Of a stretch of DNA of 64,000 nt, positions 39,932 through 49,164 are shown piece after piece (the first letter of the stretch is position 1; every line of letters begins with the position of its first letter). A program made the translations under genes and the position numbers. The notes beneath the pieces are model-generated. The model ran no database searches and was not told the origin of the DNA. It saw nothing but the letters and a program-made list of their open reading frames with translations. Source of the stretch: an uncultured Pelagibacteraceae bacterium (GTDB taxonomy: Bacteria; Pseudomonadota; Alphaproteobacteria; Pelagibacterales; Pelagibacteraceae); NCBI GenBank assembly GCA_902582315.1, contig CACHRP010000006.1, positions 3,713 through 67,712 on the forward strand, written 5' to 3'.

Positions 39932-40153
39932 TCAATTGCTTATATTATCTACAAATTTTTTTGCAATAGGCCCCACAACTAATGAGACAATAATTGCTAT
40001 AGGTAATCCTACGGACCATGCTTTTAAAAACCTTTTAAAATAGTCATTATCGTAACCAGTATTAATAAAAGTTATAATTAGAGTCATTAACAGACTCATA
40101 CCAAATCCCATTATTAAAATATAAACAAAATTTGAATACTTTTTAGGAATCAC
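39932..40153 (-). CDS. DUF2798-like small membrane protein
   Basis: M...MSLLMT.I.T.IN.G....F..AW.....IA pattern. Confidence 0.75.
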   Translation of the reverse strand: MIPKKYSNFVYILIMGFGMSLLMTLIITFINTGYDNDYFKRFLKAWSVGLPIAIIVSLVVGPIAKKFVDNISN

Positions 40154-40488
40154 GATGAAGTTTTACCAAGTAAATTTACAATTAAAACACCTGATATAAT
40201 TAATACCATTCCCAAAATAGTATATAAATCTGGCATTTGATTAAATTTAATAATACCAATAACGATTGTAGCTATAATACACAATCCAGCAAAAGAGGCA
40301 TATGTAACACCAACTGGAATTGTTTTCATAACTAAAGACAAAGTATACATGCAGCCAACAATTGTTACTGCAGTCATTAAACTTGGCACTAATACCGTGA
40401 AGCCTTGAGCGCCTTTTGCAAAACCATTTGCAGCTGTTCCTAATGCTACAGCAAAAATAAGAATTATATAAGGTAAAATATTACTCAT
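40150..40488 (-). CDS. SMR/DMT family small efflux-type transporter
   Basis: 112 aa, 4 TM, IPVGVTYASFAG; the usual membrane Glu14 is not evident. Confidence 0.75.
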   Translation of the reverse strand: MSNILPYIILIFAVALGTAANGFAKGAQGFTVLVPSLMTAVTIVGCMYTLSLVMKTIPVGVTYASFAGLCIIATIVIGIIKFNQMPDLYTILGMVLIISGVLIVNLLGKTSS

Positions 40489-40495
40489 TTAAGAA

Positions 40496-40714
40496 CTATA
40501 AATGAAATATCAAAAAATAAAAATAAATTATCCATAAGAAGCAAGCTGCCATAGTAACAAAAATAATAGTTACACCTGTAGCTGTTTCATTTTTATATTT
40601 TTTATTAACCTTATTTCTCCATTTTTGTGGGTACAGAGGAATTGTTATTGCATAAATGATAAGAAAAATATCAAGTGCTGTAATTATTATAGAAAGAAAA
40701 AGTAATTGATCCAT
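40496..40714 (-). CDS. Small membrane protein
   Basis: 72 aa, two hydrophobic segments flanking a basic loop. Confidence 0.55.
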   Translation of the reverse strand: MDQLLFLSIIITALDIFLIIYAITIPLYPQKWRNKVNKKYKNETATGVTIIFVTMAACFLWIIYFYFLIFHL

Positions 40715-40720
40715 TAATTC

Positions 40721-41272
40721 TCATATACTTTCTTTTTTAATAATCTCTTTCAATCTTTCAATCATCATTAAAGGTGTTTCCATTGCTGGATATACCTTAT
40801 GAGCCTCTATGTAACTATCAATAGCTTTTTGATAATTTTTCATCGCAGTTTGAACAAGTCCTTGTCCAGATAAAGCACCAAAATGCCTTTTCTCTAATTT
40901 CAAAACCATGTCTATATCATTTTGTGATAACTCAAGGTTCCCCATTAAATAAAGAACTGTAGCTCTTTTATTCCAAGCTTCAGCCCAATTAGGATCAAGT
41001 TCGATTGCTTTTGAAAATACATTATGTGCACTAGTTAATTGGTTTTGAGCCATATATTTTGAACCTTTCGCTAAAAGATTTGTTAAGCTTTCCTGCGAAG
41101 GGTGTGTTGTCCATAATTTCCAGATTTTTCCCTCAATTTGTTTCGCAGACATCGGATTATTTGTTTTTTTTAATCTTTCAAATAATTCATCTAGTTTTGC
41201 AGCAGTTTCATTCTGGGCTAAAGTTCCAGAAGAAAATAAAAATATGAAAAATATTAAAAATATTTTTTTCAC
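40721..41272 (-). CDS. TPR-repeat protein with signal peptide
   Basis: P.WAEAWNKRAT..YL.G, L.LE.RHFGALSG.G motifs. Confidence 0.85.
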   Translation of the reverse strand: MKKIFLIFFIFLFSSGTLAQNETAAKLDELFERLKKTNNPMSAKQIEGKIWKLWTTHPSQESLTNLLAKGSKYMAQNQLTSAHNVFSKAIELDPNWAEAWNKRATVLYLMGNLELSQNDIDMVLKLEKRHFGALSGQGLVQTAMKNYQKAIDSYIEAHKVYPAMETPLMMIERLKEIIKKESI

Positions 41273-41593
41273 TTATTTCGACATAGGTGTGGCACCTGTC
41301 TCCAAGCTTACAATTTTACCATCTTTAAACTTATAAACAGCCATAACCGCTTCGACATTTCCATCGTCAAAAGTCACGATTGCATGATGAACACCAACCT
41401 CATTATTTTCATAAACTATTCTTGACTTATCTTGTTTTATATCACCACTCATGGCCCATTTAATTACATCTGCTTTGCCAAGAGTATTTCCAGATTTATG
41501 CATAGTAAATTTAAAATCATCATGCAAAAGTTGGTTCATTACTGCTTCGTCCTTATTTTTTATAGCATTACTGTAGTTTTCTAATATAGACAT
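41273..41593 (-). CDS. NTF2/SnoaL-like protein
   Basis: 106 aa; LLHDDF, FKDGKI pattern; strong SD AAGGAG. Confidence 0.7.
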   Translation of the reverse strand: MSILENYSNAIKNKDEAVMNQLLHDDFKFTMHKSGNTLGKADVIKWAMSGDIKQDKSRIVYENNEVGVHHAIVTFDDGNVEAVMAVYKFKDGKIVSLETGATPMSK

Positions 41594-41613
41594 TTTATCT
41601 CCTTTATTAATTA

Positions 41614-42030
41614 TTAAACGTAAATTTTATCAGCTAAACCATAGCACAGAATTGCACTCAGAATAGTTAAAACTAATGGTGCATATATTCCATCATCTCG
41701 AGTTTTTTTGTTTATACCTGTCTTGTCAATTTTTAGTGAATAAAAATTTATAACTAGGATTGATGCATTAATTATAAAAATTAAATTAAAGAAAGCCCAA
41801 GTTGCTTCTAAACCCCCCGATCTAACAAAAGCAACGTAGATAGCCATAATCACTGTTGCAACCATAAATGAACCACCAAACCGTGTTAATAAGGTTGCAG
41901 ATTTGTCTACCCCTCTACCTTTAAGAAAGTTTTTAGTATCGAATACTAGTTGGTAAGCATAAGCTCCCACTATTCCAAAATGAACCAAGTAAATAATTAA
42001 ATAAAAAATATTATTAAATTTTTCAATCAT
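41614..42030 (-). CDS. Membrane protein of unknown function
   Basis: 138 aa, four hydrophobic segments. Confidence 0.6.
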   Translation of the reverse strand: MIEKFNNIFYLIIYLVHFGIVGAYAYQLVFDTKNFLKGRGVDKSATLLTRFGGSFMVATVIMAIYVAFVRSGGLEATWAFFNLIFIINASILVINFYSLKIDKTGINKKTRDDGIYAPLVLTILSAILCYGLADKIYV

Positions 42031-42319
42031 TAGAATCTCCTTTTATTATTATTAAGTTACCTTCAGAATTATTTAATCGCAAATGCTTAATTAACTCATA
42101 CTCTTCTGAATTGTACCACTCCAAAGCTTTTTCATATGTTGGAAATTTAATTACTACATTTCTTGAGTAATCCCATTTACCTTCTAAATGTTTGAATTCA
42201 CCAGCTCTAACAAGATATTTTCCCCCAAATGAAGCAATAGATTTAGGAACTTTTTCCGCGTATTCTCTATAACCTTCTTTGTGTTTGAGATTTATTTGAG
42301 CAATAACGTAACCAGACAT
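42023..42319 (-). CDS. DUF1330 family protein
   Basis: FGGKYLVRAG...LEG.W, VVIKFPTYEKALEWYNSEEY motifs. Confidence 0.9.
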   Translation of the reverse strand: MSGYVIAQINLKHKEGYREYAEKVPKSIASFGGKYLVRAGEFKHLEGKWDYSRNVVIKFPTYEKALEWYNSEEYELIKHLRLNNSEGNLIIIKGDSND

Positions 42320-42329
42320 TTTTTAATAT

Positions 42330-42707
42330 TTAATATAAAGTCTGAACTACTTTTTCTACTCTTGCTTTTCCATCTGGAATAGTTTTTTCTAAAAAAGCAT
42401 GGCAACCATCAGTTAACTCTTTATTATATTTAGAACCATAATGTTTATCTACAGCTTTGTTAGTTCCTTCATCCCAATCTTTCTCTTTAATACCAATCTC
42501 TAAAGCATATGCTTTCCATACTTTAACTGATGAAATAGACTTTTCTTTCATACTGTACTCAAACGTCTCTCCTGAAGGCAAAAAGTAGTTAGCCATATAT
42601 ATACCAACACAATCCCATGCTTTTTCCATATCTTTCTTGCTTAAATCTCCTGCATTAGCAGAATTAATAAAAACGATGCTAAATAAAATTAAAAATAATT
42701 TTTTCAT
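42330..42707 (-). CDS. Secreted hypothetical protein
   Basis: Signal peptide ending ANA; two Cys. Confidence 0.65.
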   Translation of the reverse strand: MKKLFLILFSIVFINSANAGDLSKKDMEKAWDCVGIYMANYFLPSGETFEYSMKEKSISSVKVWKAYALEIGIKEKDWDEGTNKAVDKHYGSKYNKELTDGCHAFLEKTIPDGKARVEKVVQTLY

Positions 42708-42709
42708 AA

Positions 42710-43000
42710 TTAAACCTCTACTTTAGATAATTCCCATAATTGTACATTGTCCACGCATTCAGCATAAATCGCTTTAGCTTTTGGGTTATTTCCAGAAACG
42801 AATTCTTTCATTCCTGCCTCGTTATGAACTGAAACTTTAAATAGAATGCCACTTTTGTCAGGCTTCATTCCTCCAATAGTTTTTTCAGGATAAGCAACAC
42901 TTTTCCTTACCTCCATACCTTCATCAGATTGCATCCATCCCATAAAAGTTTCTAGTTTACCTTCTTTAAGATTAACTAAAGCTAACATTTCTTTTTCCAT
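42710..43000 (-). CDS. Small hypothetical protein
   Basis: 96 aa, 7 Met; SD AAGGGAG. Confidence 0.65.
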   Translation of the reverse strand: MEKEMLALVNLKEGKLETFMGWMQSDEGMEVRKSVAYPEKTIGGMKPDKSGILFKVSVHNEAGMKEFVSGNNPKAKAIYAECVDNVQLWELSKVEV

Positions 43001-43029
43001 TTTATTTCTTCTCCCTTGTTGTAAATGAT

Positions 43030-43413
43030 TTATTTTTTCATCGCGTTAAACATGCTTAGAGTATCATCAAAAGTCATCATAATTTTTGTTTTTCCATTAT
43101 CACTAACTTCAAAATAATGACCAAACATAGTATCCATGTTGTCAGCAGTTGCATGTACTCTAACAAATACTTTATTACCTTCACTGATCATATCTAAAAT
43201 TTTTAAATGGAAATTTGGCCATGTTGCTGGAATTTTTGACATTGCAGCCATCATTGCTTGTTTACCTTTGTGAACTCCTGATAATGGGTGAACTCCTTCT
43301 TTACCTGGAAATGTCCATACGATATTGTCATCAATCATATCATTAAAAAAAGTTTCCATATCGCCTTTACCAAAAAGCTCGTAAGCTTTTCTTGTTTGTT
43401 CTTTAACGTCCAT
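43030..43413 (-). CDS. NTF2/SnoaL-like protein, Met-rich
   Basis: YELFGKGD, VW..PG...P.SG.H.GK, EG.KVFV pattern; 13 Met in 127 aa. Confidence 0.75.
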   Translation of the reverse strand: MDVKEQTRKAYELFGKGDMETFFNDMIDDNIVWTFPGKEGVHPLSGVHKGKQAMMAAMSKIPATWPNFHLKILDMISEGNKVFVRVHATADNMDTMFGHYFEVSDNGKTKIMMTFDDTLSMFNAMKK

Positions 43414-43450: not shown

Positions 43451-43735
43451 TTACATTTTTGAAAAGTCCATAACCTGCGAACATTCTTCAGAAGTAGTGT
43501 CAAAAAAATTGTTCATATCTCCTAATTGATCAATAATTGCTTGAGGACTTTCTGCTTGCCATTTACAATACATGTTCATTGAATCACCTGCACACATCAT
43601 GGTCATATGGCATACAGCTTTTTCACCGTTTACTCCCTTTTTTAAATCCTCAGGAGAAGTAGACCCTACAACCTCATGAAATTTCTTCTTCATTTCTTCA
43701 GATTTGAATACGTGTGTTGCTAAATAGTCTTTCAT
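43451..43735 (-). CDS. Small Met/Cys-rich protein, possibly DUF4242-like
   Basis: 94 aa from ATG 43735; YC.WQA.SP.A pattern; 10 Met and 4 Cys. Confidence 0.6.
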   Translation of the reverse strand: MKDYLATHVFKSEEMKKKFHEVVGSTSPEDLKKGVNGEKAVCHMTMMCAGDSMNMYCKWQAESPQAIIDQLGDMNNFFDTTSEECSQVMDFSKM

Positions 43736-43736
43736 A

Positions 43737-43786
43737 ATACATCCTTTCAATATTACATTTAACCTTAATATAATGTTGGAATGTAT
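43737..43786 (-). promoter_or_regulatory. 5'-UTR hairpin sequestering the SD of the 43735 gene
   Basis: Minus strand ATACATTCCAACATTATATT-aaggtta-AATGTAATATTG-aaa-GGATGTAT-T-ATG; 19 of 20 positions pair, including two G-U pairs. Confidence 0.5.
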
Positions 43787-43815: not shown

Positions 43816-44817
43816 TTATATCCAGTTGGGAAAAGGAAGGCCCTTTTCTTGAAGAAATTTTTTATTAAACAGCTTTGAGTTGTATTTATCTGATCGATCA
43901 CAGAGTATTGTTACAATAGTTTTTCCTGGTCCAAGCTTTTTACCCAATCTAATAGCTCCTGCAATATTTACCCCACAACTTGTTCCTAGACTTAAACCTT
44001 CATTCTGAATTAGATCATATAAAATTGGTAGTGATTCTTTATCTTCAATTGAAAAAGCTCCGTCAATTTTAGCCTCTGCAAAATTAGCTGTTACTCTACT
44101 TGAGCCAATACCTTCGGTTATTGAATTTCCTTCTCCTTTAAGTTCTCCATTTTCTATATAATTGTATAAAGAAGATCCAGCGGGATCAGATAAATAAATT
44201 TTTACATCTTTACTTTTTTCTTTTAAATAACTGCTCACACCTGCAATTGTTCCCCCAGTTCCAGAAGCGCAAACAAATGCATCTACCTTTCCATCTGTTT
44301 GATCCCAAATTTCAGGTCCAGTTGTTTCATAATGGCCTTTTGAATTAGCAGTATTATCAAATTGATTTGCCCAAACTACACCATGATTGTTTGAACTTTT
44401 TAACTCATCAGCAAGTCTTCCTGCAACTTTTACGTAATTTCCATCATCTTTATATGGTTTTGGCGGAACAAGTCTTAAATCTGCACCAATATTTTTTAGC
44501 ATATCTTTTTTTTCTTGTGTTTGATTATCGTTCATTACAATTACAGTTTTATAGCCAACTGAATTTCCTATCAAACATAGACCAATACCTGTATTTCCAG
44601 CAGTGCCCTCAACTATGGTTCCACCTTTTGATATTAGTTTTTTTTCTTCTGCGTCTTTAATTAAAGCTAAAGCTGCTCTATCTTTTACTGATCCACCCGG
44701 ATTTAAATATTCAGCTTTTCCGTAAATATTACAGCCAGTAATTTCTGAGGCTGCTTTTAGTTTTACTAATGGAGTGTTTCCAATACCAGAGATAAAGTTA
44801 TTCTGAGTGTTCTTCAT
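43816..44817 (-). CDS. cysK: Cysteine synthase (O-acetylserine thiol-lyase family)
   Basis: [15 protein letters not shown] (PLP Lys), [22 protein letters not shown] motifs. Confidence 0.85.
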
Positions 44818-45382
44818 TTTTTTCTTCGTTACTTATACCATAAGGTTTAAATTCTTCCGTTGCAGTTCCAACATTTTTAGCTGGTATCCCTACCATAACA
44901 CCATTTTCAGGAACATCTTTTGTCACTACGGCGTTAGCTCCAATTTTTGCATTCTTTCCAATGGTTATTGGTCCTAAAACTTGTGCACCTGATCCGACTA
45001 CAACATTATCTTGTAGGGTAGGGTGTCTTTTAATTTCTCTTTGACTATCGGAATTTATACTTGGTGAGATACCACCAAGTGTCGCCATATGATAAATTGT
45101 AACGTTGTCTCCTATATCTGATGTTTCACCTATTACAACTCCCATACCGTGATCAATAAATAAATTTTTTCCAATTTTTGCTTTTGGATGAATTTCAATG
45201 CCAGTCATAAATCTTGAAAACTGTGAAATTATTCTTGCAACCAAATCAAATTTTGCAATTGCAAAAAAATTTGCAATCCTATGCATAAATACAGCCTTCA
45301 CTCCTGGATATGTTAAAATCACTGACAGCTTTGATTTTGCTGCAGGATCTCTTTTTATAATAGATTCTAAAAATTCATTCAT
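44798..45382 (-). CDS. cysE: Serine O-acetyltransferase
   Basis: [39 protein letters not shown] motifs. Confidence 0.95.
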
Positions 45383-45420
45383 AATTCTTTTTATTTTTTA
45401 GGATTAACTAAAAATTACTT

Positions 45421-45534
45421 TTAACAACAGCAACAAGTGTTTTCTGGTTTGCACAAACATTCTTGGCCGTTTTCACAAGCACAAGTGTCATTAGTGCAAT
45501 TGGTACAAATGCATTTTGGATTTTCGCATGCCAT
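45421..45534 (-). CDS. Metallothionein-like Cys-rich peptide, 37 aa, 12 Cys (not in ORF track)
   Basis: MACENPKCICTNCTNDTCACENGQECLCKPENTCCCC*. ATG 45534, TAA 45421-45423; Cys codons are mixed TGT/TGC; same strand as both neighbours. Confidence 0.85.
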   Translation of the reverse strand: MACENPKCICTNCTNDTCACENGQECLCKPENTCCCC

Positions 45535-45587
45535 GATTAAGATATAAATATTAATTGGCTAATTACAATACTTTTATTTACCGCAAA

Positions 45588-46280
45588 TTATAACTGTTCT
45601 AAAGTAAGCCCTTTAACATTAGCGGGGACTGCAACATCCATCATCTTAGGATTTGCTAGTTTTAGATTCTCCATTATCTCAGCATACTCTTCTTTTGAAC
45701 TCACTTGTAATCTTGGGTTATTATTTCTCTCTGTTTCAATCGTTGAAAACTTTTTACCGTTATAATCATGTGCTGGATAAACTAGGGTTTTTTCAGGAAG
45801 TTTTAATAATTTATTAAACAGTGAGTCGTAAGCATCAAATGAGCTGCCATTTTGAAAATCTGTTCTTCCTGTGCCATTTATTAACAAAGTATCTCCAGTA
45901 AAAACTCTATCCTTCATAAAATAACTGTAGGAACAATCCGTATGACCAGGTGTGTACATAGCTTTTAATTCTATGTTCTCAATATTAATTTTTTCGTTAT
46001 CTTTAACTTTAATATCTATAACTTCTGATTTAGAATTTTCTCCCATTATTCGTGTACAGCTAGTTCTTTTATTTAACTCGTTAAGGGCAGTAATATGATC
46101 AGCGTGAATATGTGTATCTATTACTTTAACTAATTTTAATTTTAGCTTTTCCAAAATTTTTAAATATTCATTAGTGTGTTCAATAACTGGATCAATAATT
46201 AATGCCTCTCGCCCTTCACCGCTTGATATAATGTAAGTGTAAGTTGAAGATTTAGTATCAAATAACTGCTCAAAGATCAT
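45588..46280 (-). CDS. ETHE1-like persulfide dioxygenase (metallo-beta-lactamase fold)
   Basis: STYTYI, THIHADHITA, TPGHT, FTGD.LL..G.GRTDFQ, YPAHDY, NPRL motifs. Confidence 0.85.
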   Translation of the reverse strand: MIFEQLFDTKSSTYTYIISSGEGREALIIDPVIEHTNEYLKILEKLKLKLVKVIDTHIHADHITALNELNKRTSCTRIMGENSKSEVIDIKVKDNEKINIENIELKAMYTPGHTDCSYSYFMKDRVFTGDTLLINGTGRTDFQNGSSFDAYDSLFNKLLKLPEKTLVYPAHDYNGKKFSTIETERNNNPRLQVSSKEEYAEIMENLKLANPKMMDVAVPANVKGLTLEQL

Positions 46281-46289
46281 GATTTCCTA

Positions 46290-46331
46290 ATATTATAAAA
46301 AATTGCAAGGCAAATCAATCTTGCATATAAT
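46290..46331. promoter_or_regulatory. Overlapping divergent sigma70 promoters with inverted repeat TGCAAG-N10-CTTGCA
   Basis: Plus strand TTGCAA(46303)-N17-TATAAT(46326); minus strand TTGATT-N17-TAATAT; inverted repeat at 46304-46325. Confidence 0.55.
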
Positions 46332-46363
46332 TTAATTATAAAAACTAATCGAGGGTAATTATT

Positions 46364-47026
46364 ATGACACTTAAAATAAATAGCTTAGCTCCTGATTTTA
46401 AAGCAAAAACTCAAGAAGGCGACATATCGTTTCATGAGTGGCTTGGTGATAGTTGGGGTGTTTTGTTTTCACATCCAAAAGATTTTACACCAGTTTGCAC
46501 AACTGAATTAGGTTCATTAGCAAAAATGAAACCAGAGTTTGACGCAAGAAACGTAAAAGTTTTAGGACTTAGTGTAGATCCAGTTTCTGACCACGTAAAA
46601 TGGTTAGAAGACATTAAAGATGTTTGTGGAATGAAACCAACTTATCCAATCATTGCAGATGAAAAATTGGAAGTGGCAAAACTTTACAATATGTTAGAAG
46701 GTGATGCTGGCGTTACTTCAATGGGAAGAACAGCTGTAGACAATGAAACAGTAAGAACTGTTTATATAATTAGACCGGATAAAAGAATTGGTTTATTTTT
46801 AACATATCCAATGACAACAGGAAGAAACTTTGCAGAAATACTAAGAGCAATAGACTCTATGCAGAGAACTGCTAAACATAAAATAGCTACTCCTGCTGAT
46901 TGGAAACCAGGAGAGGATGTAATTATTGTTCCCAAGGTAACTAACGAGGAAGCAAAGAAAATATATCCTGATGGATGGGAAACCGTAAAACCTTACTTAA
47001 GAAAAGTTCCAGATCCAAATAAATAA
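46364..47026 (+). CDS. 1-Cys peroxiredoxin (Prx6 family)
   Basis: FSHPKDFTPVCTTELG, YPMTTGRNF.E, ATPADW motifs. Confidence 0.93.
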   Translation: MTLKINSLAPDFKAKTQEGDISFHEWLGDSWGVLFSHPKDFTPVCTTELGSLAKMKPEFDARNVKVLGLSVDPVSDHVKWLEDIKDVCGMKPTYPIIADEKLEVAKLYNMLEGDAGVTSMGRTAVDNETVRTVYIIRPDKRIGLFLTYPMTTGRNFAEILRAIDSMQRTAKHKIATPADWKPGEDVIIVPKVTNEEAKKIYPDGWETVKPYLRKVPDPNK

Positions 47027-48546: not shown

Positions 48547-49164
48547 ATGAGTTTTTTGTTTTTAGGTTTTTTTACAGGACTTAGTTTAATCTTAGCTTTG
48601 GGCGCCCAAAATATTTTTGTTATAGAACAAGGTCTTAAAAAAAATTACATATTCATTGTTTGTTTAATATGCTCTTTATCCGACCTTATTTTAATATTTT
48701 TTGGAATTTTCCTTTTTAATTTTTTTGAAAATTATCTATCAGGGATAGTTGAATTTATTTTAAATATTTTATTATTGATATTTTTAATTTATTTTATATT
48801 TGAAAAAATAAAGTCAAATTATAAAAATGTTAGTTTTGATGAACAAAAAAGAACCTTATCTTTTAAAAGCGTAACAATAAAAACTCTTGGATTTACCTAT
48901 TTGAACCCACATGTTTATTCAGATACTGTTTTTTTTCTTGGAAATTTTTCTAAAAATTTTGAAATTTTTAATAAATATTATTTCGGTATTGGAGCAGCAA
49001 TTTCATCATTTATCTTCTTTTTTTCATTAGGATATATGTCAAAATTTTTTTCAAATTATTTAAAAGGTGAAAAAATTTGGAAATATATAAATAACTTTAT
49101 AATTATTTTTATGAGTGGCTTATGTATATATATTTTGAGTGATTTGTATGATTATTTTATTTAA
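48547..49164 (+). CDS. LysE/ArgO family amino-acid exporter
   Basis: LILALGAQN.FV..QG, TYLNPHVY.DT motifs. Confidence 0.85.
   Translation: MSFLFLGFFTGLSLILALGAQNIFVIEQGLKKNYIFIVCLICSLSDLILIFFGIFLFNFFENYLSGIVEFILNILLLIFLIYFIFEKIKSNYKNVSFDEQKRTLSFKSVTIKTLGFTYLNPHVYSDTVFFLGNFSKNFEIFNKYYFGIGAAISSFIFFFSLGYMSKFFSNYLKGEKIWKYINNFIIIFMSGLCIYILSDLYDYFI

Follow-up and report, generated by a model that had tools for sequence, protein, structure and literature searches.

A conserved cysteine-rich peptide gene ahead of cysE and cysK in Pelagibacteraceae: a candidate metallothionein-like family of the SAR11 clade

A stretch of 64,000 nucleotides from an uncultured Pelagibacteraceae bacterium (assembly GCA_902582315.1, contig CACHRP010000006.1, positions 3,713 to 67,712), called the window below, carries a very small cysteine-rich open reading frame (ORF) between the gene of a persulfide dioxygenase (PDO) and the genes of serine O-acetyltransferase (CysE) and a cysteine synthase-like enzyme (CysK). 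What purpose may such a peptide serve in SAR11, and why is it placed there? The original prediction, made from the letters of the window alone, had seen in this locus a sulfur or metal homeostasis system with the peptide as either a metal chelator or a reservoir of reduced sulfur. The analysis reported here suggests, with a probability of about one half, that the peptide is the founder of a new SAR11-restricted metallothionein-like thiolate family which is co-expressed with its own cysteine supply. The class of protein would thus be a known one, but its sequence family and its operon arrangement would be new, and the organism is a very abundant one.

Cysteine accounts for 12 of the 37 residues of the peptide versus 1.06% of the residues in the long ORFs of the window, and no other small polycysteine ORF was found in the 64 kb. 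Related loci were collected by a scan of one genome per species, which gave at least 63 loci, all of Pelagibacteraceae, and by a metagenome scan, which gave 80; 152 loci were fetched overall. The scans were pattern-based, and divergent members or members in other contexts could escape them. All 152 loci belong to Pelagibacteraceae or to marine metagenomes and they hold 112 distinct peptides of 37–43 amino acids (aa). In protein collections five related clusters emerged when 1.84 billion representative proteins were searched exhaustively with HMMER, and an alignment-based search of 5.8 billion proteins found 48, none of the latter with a name or a Pfam domain, and the members of the related clusters come almost wholly from metagenome assemblies.

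The peptides share the scaffold C-x4-CxC-x2-C-x4-CxC-x5-CxC-x5/6-CCC(C). Among the 112 peptides the positions C3, C18, C20, C26, C28, P30 and the terminal CCC, all outside the scan pattern, are 95–100% conserved and D16 is conserved in 88%, with the residues between the conserved positions varying freely; in the HMMER-derived sets, which were not bound by the pattern, N5 is invariant and K7 and N12 are nearly so. Across homologues both TGT and TGC are used for each of the cysteines, and N5, N12 and D16 are likewise encoded by either of their two codons. No insertion or deletion was found in codons 1–33 of the peptide gene, while the spacer to cysE varies from 25 to 39 nt. The pairwise ratio of nonsynonymous to synonymous substitution rates (dN/dS) is 0.15–0.21 for the peptide compared with 0.02–0.08 for PDO, cysE and cysK when identical pairs of genomes are taken, and the peptide evolves faster than the neighbouring genes also by protein identity (49–97% versus 75–100%). 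These substitution patterns indicate clear purifying selection on the peptide gene.

Most public annotations do not call this gene, and the exact window peptide is neither recorded as a called gene nor present in a collection of 15 billion proteins, as would be expected of a spurious ORF, that is of a chance product of the intergenic spacer or of a decaying gene without function. To such an origin we attach practically no credence, since it is refuted already by conservation: the ORF is intact in 150 of the 152 loci, the two exceptions being low-coverage or chimeric contigs, the dN/dS values fall well short of 1, the promoter is conserved and the gene is transcribed in the ocean. Judged by its conservation and transcription, the gene is real and codes for a protein. 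A few aberrant copies were also seen. Among the metagenome variants (P0160, P0003/L008, P0186, P0001/L009) one has a nine-residue internal duplication (DNCQCDGTN/K) and two copies are frameshifted, so that CCCC is read as VVVV; one low-coverage contig joins the first 32 residues of the peptide to a GNAT acetyltransferase and is probably an assembly chimera.

The composition of the peptides is that of metallothioneins. The 112 sequences contain on average 29% cysteine (range 25.6–32.5%), arranged as three CxC motifs, one CxxC and the CCC(C) tail, which lies within the size and cysteine range of that class (<10 kDa, 15–35% Cys). Aromatic residues and histidine together amount to 0.9% (Y 0.7%, F 0.1%, H 0.1%, W 0%), in line with the metallothionein criterion as well, and the minority of sequences that do contain tyrosine or phenylalanine have it mostly at position 15. 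Since the longest hydrophobic run is of two residues, no signal peptide is predicted. Codons ending in C for cysteine, asparagine and aspartate reach a fraction of 0.39–0.46 in the peptide gene versus 0.17–0.24 in the long ORFs of the window, an approximately twofold excess that suggests selection for efficient translation of the peptide.

According to the favoured metallothionein-like interpretation the gene would be transcribed from its own near-consensus promoter into cysE and cysK, and each transcript would supply both a cysteine-hungry peptide and the pair of enzymes by which serine and sulfide are turned into cysteine. The peptide would fold around a thiolate cluster, with d10 metals as the likeliest ligands, roughly four Zn/Cd or six to eight Cu(I) per 11–12 thiolates. 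In that case cysE-cysK would supply what the peptide demands, and its large need for cysteine would explain the co-transcription.

The promoter of the peptide gene is well defined by comparison. In 56 distinct upstream sequences anchored at the ATG, T at −34 is found in 55 and G at −32 in 43, and within the −10 region T-12 is kept in 50, A-11 in 49, T-10 in 54, A-9 in 54 and T-8 in 52; the position −1 is a pyrimidine, T in 44 sequences. The consensus thus consists of TTG from −34 to −32 and, after a 16-nt spacer, TATAT(a/t) from −12 to −7, and this geometry is kept in clades with unalignable surroundings and in loci with different upstream genes. In all clades the A of the peptide ATG (45534 in the window) lies 7 nt past the −10 hexamer, which is the canonical distance of a transcription start site, and no Shine-Dalgarno sequence precedes the ATG; from this distance and this absence a leaderless peptide mRNA is predicted.

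Metatranscriptome contigs are compatible with the prediction. On the window they extend from the 5' part of cysE across the spacer and into the peptide gene as far as 45525 (two runs), which is 9 nt inside the ATG; RNA depth is zero from 45538 to 45700 and there is little RNA on PDO. In a second clade (L033) low-depth contigs run from the 3' end of PDO through the peptide gene into cysE, and in one run the depth, which is a rough measure of transcription, steps up 10–40-fold at the peptide start. From the promoter geometry together with the contig ends the peptide mRNA is probably leaderless, and the main transcription unit comprises the peptide gene, cysE and probably cysK, with weak read-through from PDO. 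The original prediction had grouped the four co-oriented genes as one system: the co-transcription that it had proposed as a check holds for the peptide and cysE, whose junction is spanned by ocean RNA contigs, but one simple operon does not describe the locus, the peptide having its own conserved promoter, which that prediction had not noted, and the read-through from PDO being weak.

The gene order around the peptide is conserved, in support of the original prediction. CysE follows the peptide gene within 80 nt in 136/143 evaluable loci, PDO precedes it within 150 nt in 104/115 evaluable loci, and cysK comes after cysE in 99/111. An occurrence of the peptide gene in unrelated contexts had been named as the observation that would speak against a functional module; the few exceptions found still adjoin PDO, msrB or glutaredoxin genes. 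One lineage (L037, L039) has the order peptide-cysE-msrB beside dimethylglycine dehydrogenase, without PDO or cysK. In seven genome loci (L027:2982-4223, L017, L041, L047, L057, L063, L067) and in several metagenome loci a gene for a type II sulfide:quinone oxidoreductase (SQR) of 413 aa, which matches human SQOR at E=3e-98, stands between the peroxiredoxin (Prx) gene and PDO, co-oriented with the latter, and gives the order SQR-PDO-peptide-cysE-cysK; the window genome has no SQR at this place. The divergent Prx gene is present in most of the related loci.

A separate group of seven loci keeps the peptide gene although cysE does not follow. Six of these retain the full cysteine scaffold and the CCC tail, and the remaining one (L109) has a single replacement, C20Y. 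In six loci a convergent gene comes next, for a glutaredoxin, an ABC ATPase, a SoxG-like protein or an ATP-grasp protein, and in the seventh, on a metagenome contig (L109:65-647), a DUF4396 membrane protein gene starts 25 nt after the peptide gene. A search for CysE homologues, which did not reach SAR11 lineages possibly without the peptide, returned only matches of 97–100% identity, with the exception of an anomalous entry of 264 aa that is 77% identical across 82% of the query.

The attachment to cysE also invites an explanation, not raised in the original prediction, in which the ORF is mainly translated as a cysteine sensor, where scarcity of Cys-tRNA pauses ribosomes at the 12 cysteine codons, chiefly in the CCC(C) run at the end of the ORF, 25–39 nt before cysE, and so raises cysE-cysK expression. 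The precedent is found in mycobacteria, in which ribosomes paused on leaderless polycysteine small ORFs (sORFs) open an RNA duplex that masks the following gene's ribosome-binding site, and in which one sORF, Rv2334A, precedes the same gene set, cysK1-cysE (10.1101/834739). The SAR11 locus shares much with this model: the proximity of cysE is kept also in the lineages with PDO and cysK replaced (L037, L039), a leaderless start is predicted by the promoter geometry and the missing Shine-Dalgarno sequence, cysE itself has no evident Shine-Dalgarno sequence, and a CCC or CCCC run is present in 111/112 peptides, in agreement with the sORF criterion of two or more cysteine codons in a row. Few transcription factors are stated for SAR11 in PMC13198564.

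The seven loci without cysE are, however, difficult to accommodate, because in the six followed only by a convergent gene there is nothing for the ORF to regulate. A stalling sensor would need neither the eight dispersed cysteines with their individually fixed spacing nor the conserved P30 and D16. In the peptide-cysE spacer no significant hairpin was found among 49 distinct junctions (fold z from −2.7 to +1.7, most near 0), and the cysE start has an unpaired probability of 0.478 versus 0.473 in 365 control genes (p=0.70), no sequestering duplex being detected. RNA depth holds level from the peptide gene to cysE in one run (X1), and sulfur limitation did not induce cysE and cysK in strain HTCC1062 (PMC5069961), which may or may not carry the ORF. 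A mainly regulatory ORF is therefore considered very unlikely, and on account of the cysE-less loci and the unstructured cysE start a pure cysteine-sensing leader as the sole function is disfavoured. A secondary effect in cis of the 12 cysteine codons on cysE translation is possible but unsupported.

In the clade with 39-aa peptides (L004:1345-1377 and others) the CCC codons and the next two, within the last seven codons of the gene, form an 8-bp hairpin, AGUUGUUG-UUG-UAACAACU, with apparently compensatory changes (TGC with AGC, AGC...AGC, ACT...AAG); the clades with 37- and 38-aa peptides, the window included, have no comparable stem. A terminator-type attenuator built on this CCC hairpin was rejected, as its logic is reversed (a stall upstream would promote the hairpin and so reduce cysE) and as the hairpin occurs in one clade only.

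Several observations weigh against the metallothionein-like interpretation. A Pfam search with six diverse members gave no match even at E<=10, including the Metallothio* families and PF02069, an NCBIfam search of the peptide gave none either, and no PDB metallothionein was found by sequence or profile. AlphaFold2, run without ions on a four-sequence alignment, gave a predicted local distance difference test score (pLDDT) of only 58.6. Peptide positions 5–13 belonged to the scan pattern, so that their invariance in the locus sets is partly circular. The position upstream of cysE, the leaderless-type start and the terminal cysteine run together form the architecture of the mycobacterial cysteine-sensing sORFs. 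Family scans of the neighbours of the peptide gene revealed no metal sensor, metal pump, chaperone or other metal-handling gene, and all neighbours concern sulfur and thiol redox, which keeps the option of a sulfur reservoir alive. The sole match of the peptide in Pfam, NCBIfam and PDB was to a mucin C8 domain; it reflects composition only and was set aside. A RiPP precursor (a ribosomally synthesised and post-translationally modified peptide) and a secreted toxin were likewise rejected, with no signal peptide, and no modifying enzyme or dedicated exporter nearby.

In the reservoir model a metal-free thiol peptide would serve as a store of sulfane sulfur or cysteine, or as a redox buffer, in an organism unable to reduce sulfate; it would hold the reduced sulfur made by CysE/CysK, or carry persulfide or polysulfide between sulfide-producing reactions, SQR/PDO and CysK. 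Every recurrent neighbour is indeed concerned with sulfide, persulfide or thiol redox (PDO, SQR, CysE, CysK, Prx, MsrB, glutaredoxin), metal genes are lacking nearby, the peptide gene still adjoins PDO where cysE is absent, and SAR11 relies on exogenous reduced sulfur (PMC5069961). From these neighbours the locus, placed behind PDO (with SQR ahead in some relatives) and opposite Prx, would as a whole handle sulfide and thiol chemistry. On the other hand, Pfam and NCBIfam searches gave no match to sulfur carriers of the rhodanese, TusA, DsrE or SoxY types, 12 free thiols would, if they held no metal, be highly prone to oxidation in aerobic cells, and CxC motifs at fixed spacing are typical of the metal clusters of metallothioneins. 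The reservoir is accordingly regarded as a fairly unlikely alternative, and the ligand of the thiolates may be a metal or sulfane sulfur.

A combination of storage and sensing can also be imagined, as a quite unlikely case: a dual-purpose SAR11 device in which the thionein would bank reduced sulfur, and perhaps sulfide-bridged metal, at times when the catabolism of dimethylsulfoniopropionate (DMSP) or methanethiol yields sulfide, with its own translation, by way of 12 cysteine codons on a leaderless mRNA, gauging Cys-tRNA and tuning CysE/CysK. Were this true, storage and sensing would be united in one gene of the ocean's most abundant sulfur auxotroph.

Comparison with known systems places the peptide near several of them. 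With the bacterial metallothioneins (SmtA/BmtA of PF02069, Mycobacterium MymT, Pseudomonas PmtA), whose presumed role is to buffer Zn, Cd, Cu or oxidative stress, it has in common that it is small, cytoplasmic, rich in cysteine, without signal sequence and built on CxC/CxxC motifs. It differs from them in having no detectable sequence similarity, no histidine ligands and no adjacent SmtB-type repressor, and in being the first cistron of a cysE-cysK operon; the ligand set of SmtA is Cys9His2. It presumably also resembles the fungal copper thioneins (Neurospora/Agaricus, about 25 aa with three CxC) and the single-domain eukaryotic metallothioneins (M4Cys11 alpha-domain) in size and cysteine count (11–12 Cys in 37–39 aa), in CxC motifs 2–5 residues apart and in the near absence of aromatics. 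The lineage is unrelated, and the CCC(C) tail, N5, K7, N12, D16 and P30 set the SAR11 family apart.

The mycobacterial 'Cys ribulon' sORFs (Rv2334A-cysK1-cysE, Ms5788A; Canestrari et al. 2020, 10.1101/834739) resemble the SAR11 gene in being unannotated, in the C-terminal cysteine run and in their place as first cistron of a leaderless mRNA (here predicted) followed by cysteine-biosynthesis genes. Distinct from them, the SAR11 gene has no detected duplex sequestering a ribosome-binding site, has eight further fixed cysteines and persists without cysE in seven loci. The SQR-PDO clusters with which heterotrophic bacteria oxidise sulfide (Xia et al. 2017, PMC5702731) likewise contain a type I PDO, and in some SAR11 relatives a human-type (type II) SQR lies directly upstream of it; in SAR11, unlike in those clusters, PDO is followed by the thionein-like gene and cysE-cysK and not by a rhodanese or sulfite exporter. 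Both SQR and PDO have been called rare in the SAR11 clade (PMC5702731).

The features of the locus are collected in Table 1. Its layout was recomputed from the coordinates and all five ORFs were recovered as the original prediction had placed them, four being co-oriented and Prx divergent: from the PDO stop (45588) to the peptide ATG (45534) there are 53 bp, from the peptide stop (45421) to the cysE ATG (45382) 38 bp, the end of cysE shares 20 bp with the start of cysK (44798-44817), and the spacer between PDO and Prx is 83 bp. The closest relatives of the window, which has a G+C content of about 30%, are single-cell genomes of uncultured Pelagibacteraceae with 95–100% protein identity in the neighbouring genes.

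Table 1. Features of the cysteine-rich peptide locus (coordinates in the window)
Feature	Position	Strand	Details
CysK-like cysteine synthase, pyridoxal phosphate-dependent	43816..44817	-	333 aa; NF007989 type
CysE, serine O-acetyltransferase, short form	44798..45382	-	194 aa; no evident Shine-Dalgarno sequence
Cys-rich peptide, MACENPKCICTNCTNDTCACENGQECLCKPENTCCCC	45421..45534	-	37 aa, 12 Cys
Promoter of the peptide gene	45541..45568	-	-35 TTGTAA (45568-45563), 16-nt spacer, -10 TATATC (45546-45541)
Type I (ETHE1-like) persulfide dioxygenase (PDO)	45588..46280	-	230 aa
Conserved block in the Prx/PDO spacer	46292..46331	.	kept across clades with unalignable flanks
1-Cys peroxiredoxin (Prx6-type)	46364..47026	+	220 aa; Pfam AhpC-TSA 3.9e-29, 1-cysPrx_C 7.9e-13

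The identities first given to PDO, CysE, CysK and the 1-Cys Prx were borne out by matches in Pfam, NCBIfam and PDB. In PDB the dioxygenase matches best the PDO of Myxococcus xanthus (4YSB, E=6e-68), and next the Arabidopsis (2GCU, 6e-51) and human ETHE1 (4CHL, 1e-49) entries, versus only 4e-16 for glyoxalase II (1QH3), and its sequence contains THIHADH, the HxHxDH motif of the metallo-beta-lactamase fold; by these matches the 230-aa protein is a type I PDO, closer to characterised PDOs than to glyoxalase II. CysE scores 215.9 bits with TIGR01172 (cut-off 210.65) and 227 bits with NF041874, and matches PDB serine acetyltransferases at 5e-34. The window CysE ends in ...EEKNEEHSE, without a C-terminal isoleucine. 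In the classical cysteine synthase complex of E. coli and Salmonella it is the C-terminal isoleucine of CysE that docks into CysK, and with the window CysE this complex may not form.

The CysK-like enzyme reaches 520.6 bits with NF007989 ('cysteine synthase A', cut-off 387) and 1e-122 with the PDB entries 5I7W/5JIS, named 'cysteine synthase'. It also scores 274 bits with the cystathionine beta-synthase (CBS) model TIGR01137 compared with 261 for the CysK model TIGR01139, and the CysK/CysM models span 223–271 bits; because the CBS and CysK scores are so close, either sulfide or homocysteine may be its substrate. An O-acetylserine-dependent CBS activity of this enzyme would fill the cystathionine step, which has been called unclear in Pelagibacter (PMC5069961).

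The spacer between Prx and PDO carries predicted promoter elements of both genes. The Prx promoter TTGCAA-17-TATAAT was located at 46303-46331 on the + strand (promoter scan, 10/12 match) and a TATAAT for PDO at 46297-46292 on the − strand. The 33-bp block GCAAGATTGATTTGCyATGCAATTTTTTATA is kept across clades with unalignable flanks; it contains the Prx promoter, whose spacer is unusually conserved and includes the dyad GCAA-N7-TTGC, a candidate operator of some regulator. A scan of the whole window with Rfam found no known RNA family.

On the other side of the locus, 65 nt downstream of cysK and co-oriented with it, lies a 99-aa ORF (43451-43750, − strand) with a stretch rich in methionine, cysteine and histidine, CHMTMMCAGDSMNMYC, and without match in Pfam or NCBIfam; it keeps its position downstream of cysK in the closest clades and is found farther off in others, and it is possibly a metal- or redox-related small protein. 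Nine further small co-oriented genes follow downstream of cysK (40150-43413, − strand), including two SnoaL-like genes, a DUF1330 gene, a TPR gene, an SMR-family transporter and several ORFs without family, and a part of this downstream run (SnoaL, the 99-aa ORF) accompanies the locus in related genomes. A LysE-family exporter gene is found 1.5 kb from the locus (48547-49164, + strand), and an ORF that resembles a LysE exporter by eye only lies near the peptide-cysE-msrB locus (L037:9346-9960). Some members of the LysE superfamily export cysteine or O-acetylserine in E. coli.

In the searchable full-text literature no description of a metallothionein or cysteine-rich protein in Pelagibacter, or of PDO in SAR11, was found, nor was any of the module as a whole, which the original prediction had also believed to be undescribed. 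As the gene is missed by standard annotation and is nameless among 5.8 billion proteins, it is absent from the current metabolic reconstructions of SAR11. This group is the most abundant among the bacteria of the surface ocean, and given its minimal genome and its lack of sulfate reduction a conserved and expressed peptide with 29% cysteine is an unexpected investment. The conserved promoter of the peptide gene offers a clear and testable case of leaderless translation in SAR11. Should the peptide serve to store or sense reduced sulfur, it would be relevant to the way in which these bacteria cope with a patchy supply of DMSP, methionine and sulfide; as a metallothionein it would provide SAR11 with an intracellular buffer for Zn, Cd or Cu and could bear on trace-metal cycling and on copper tolerance in the open ocean.

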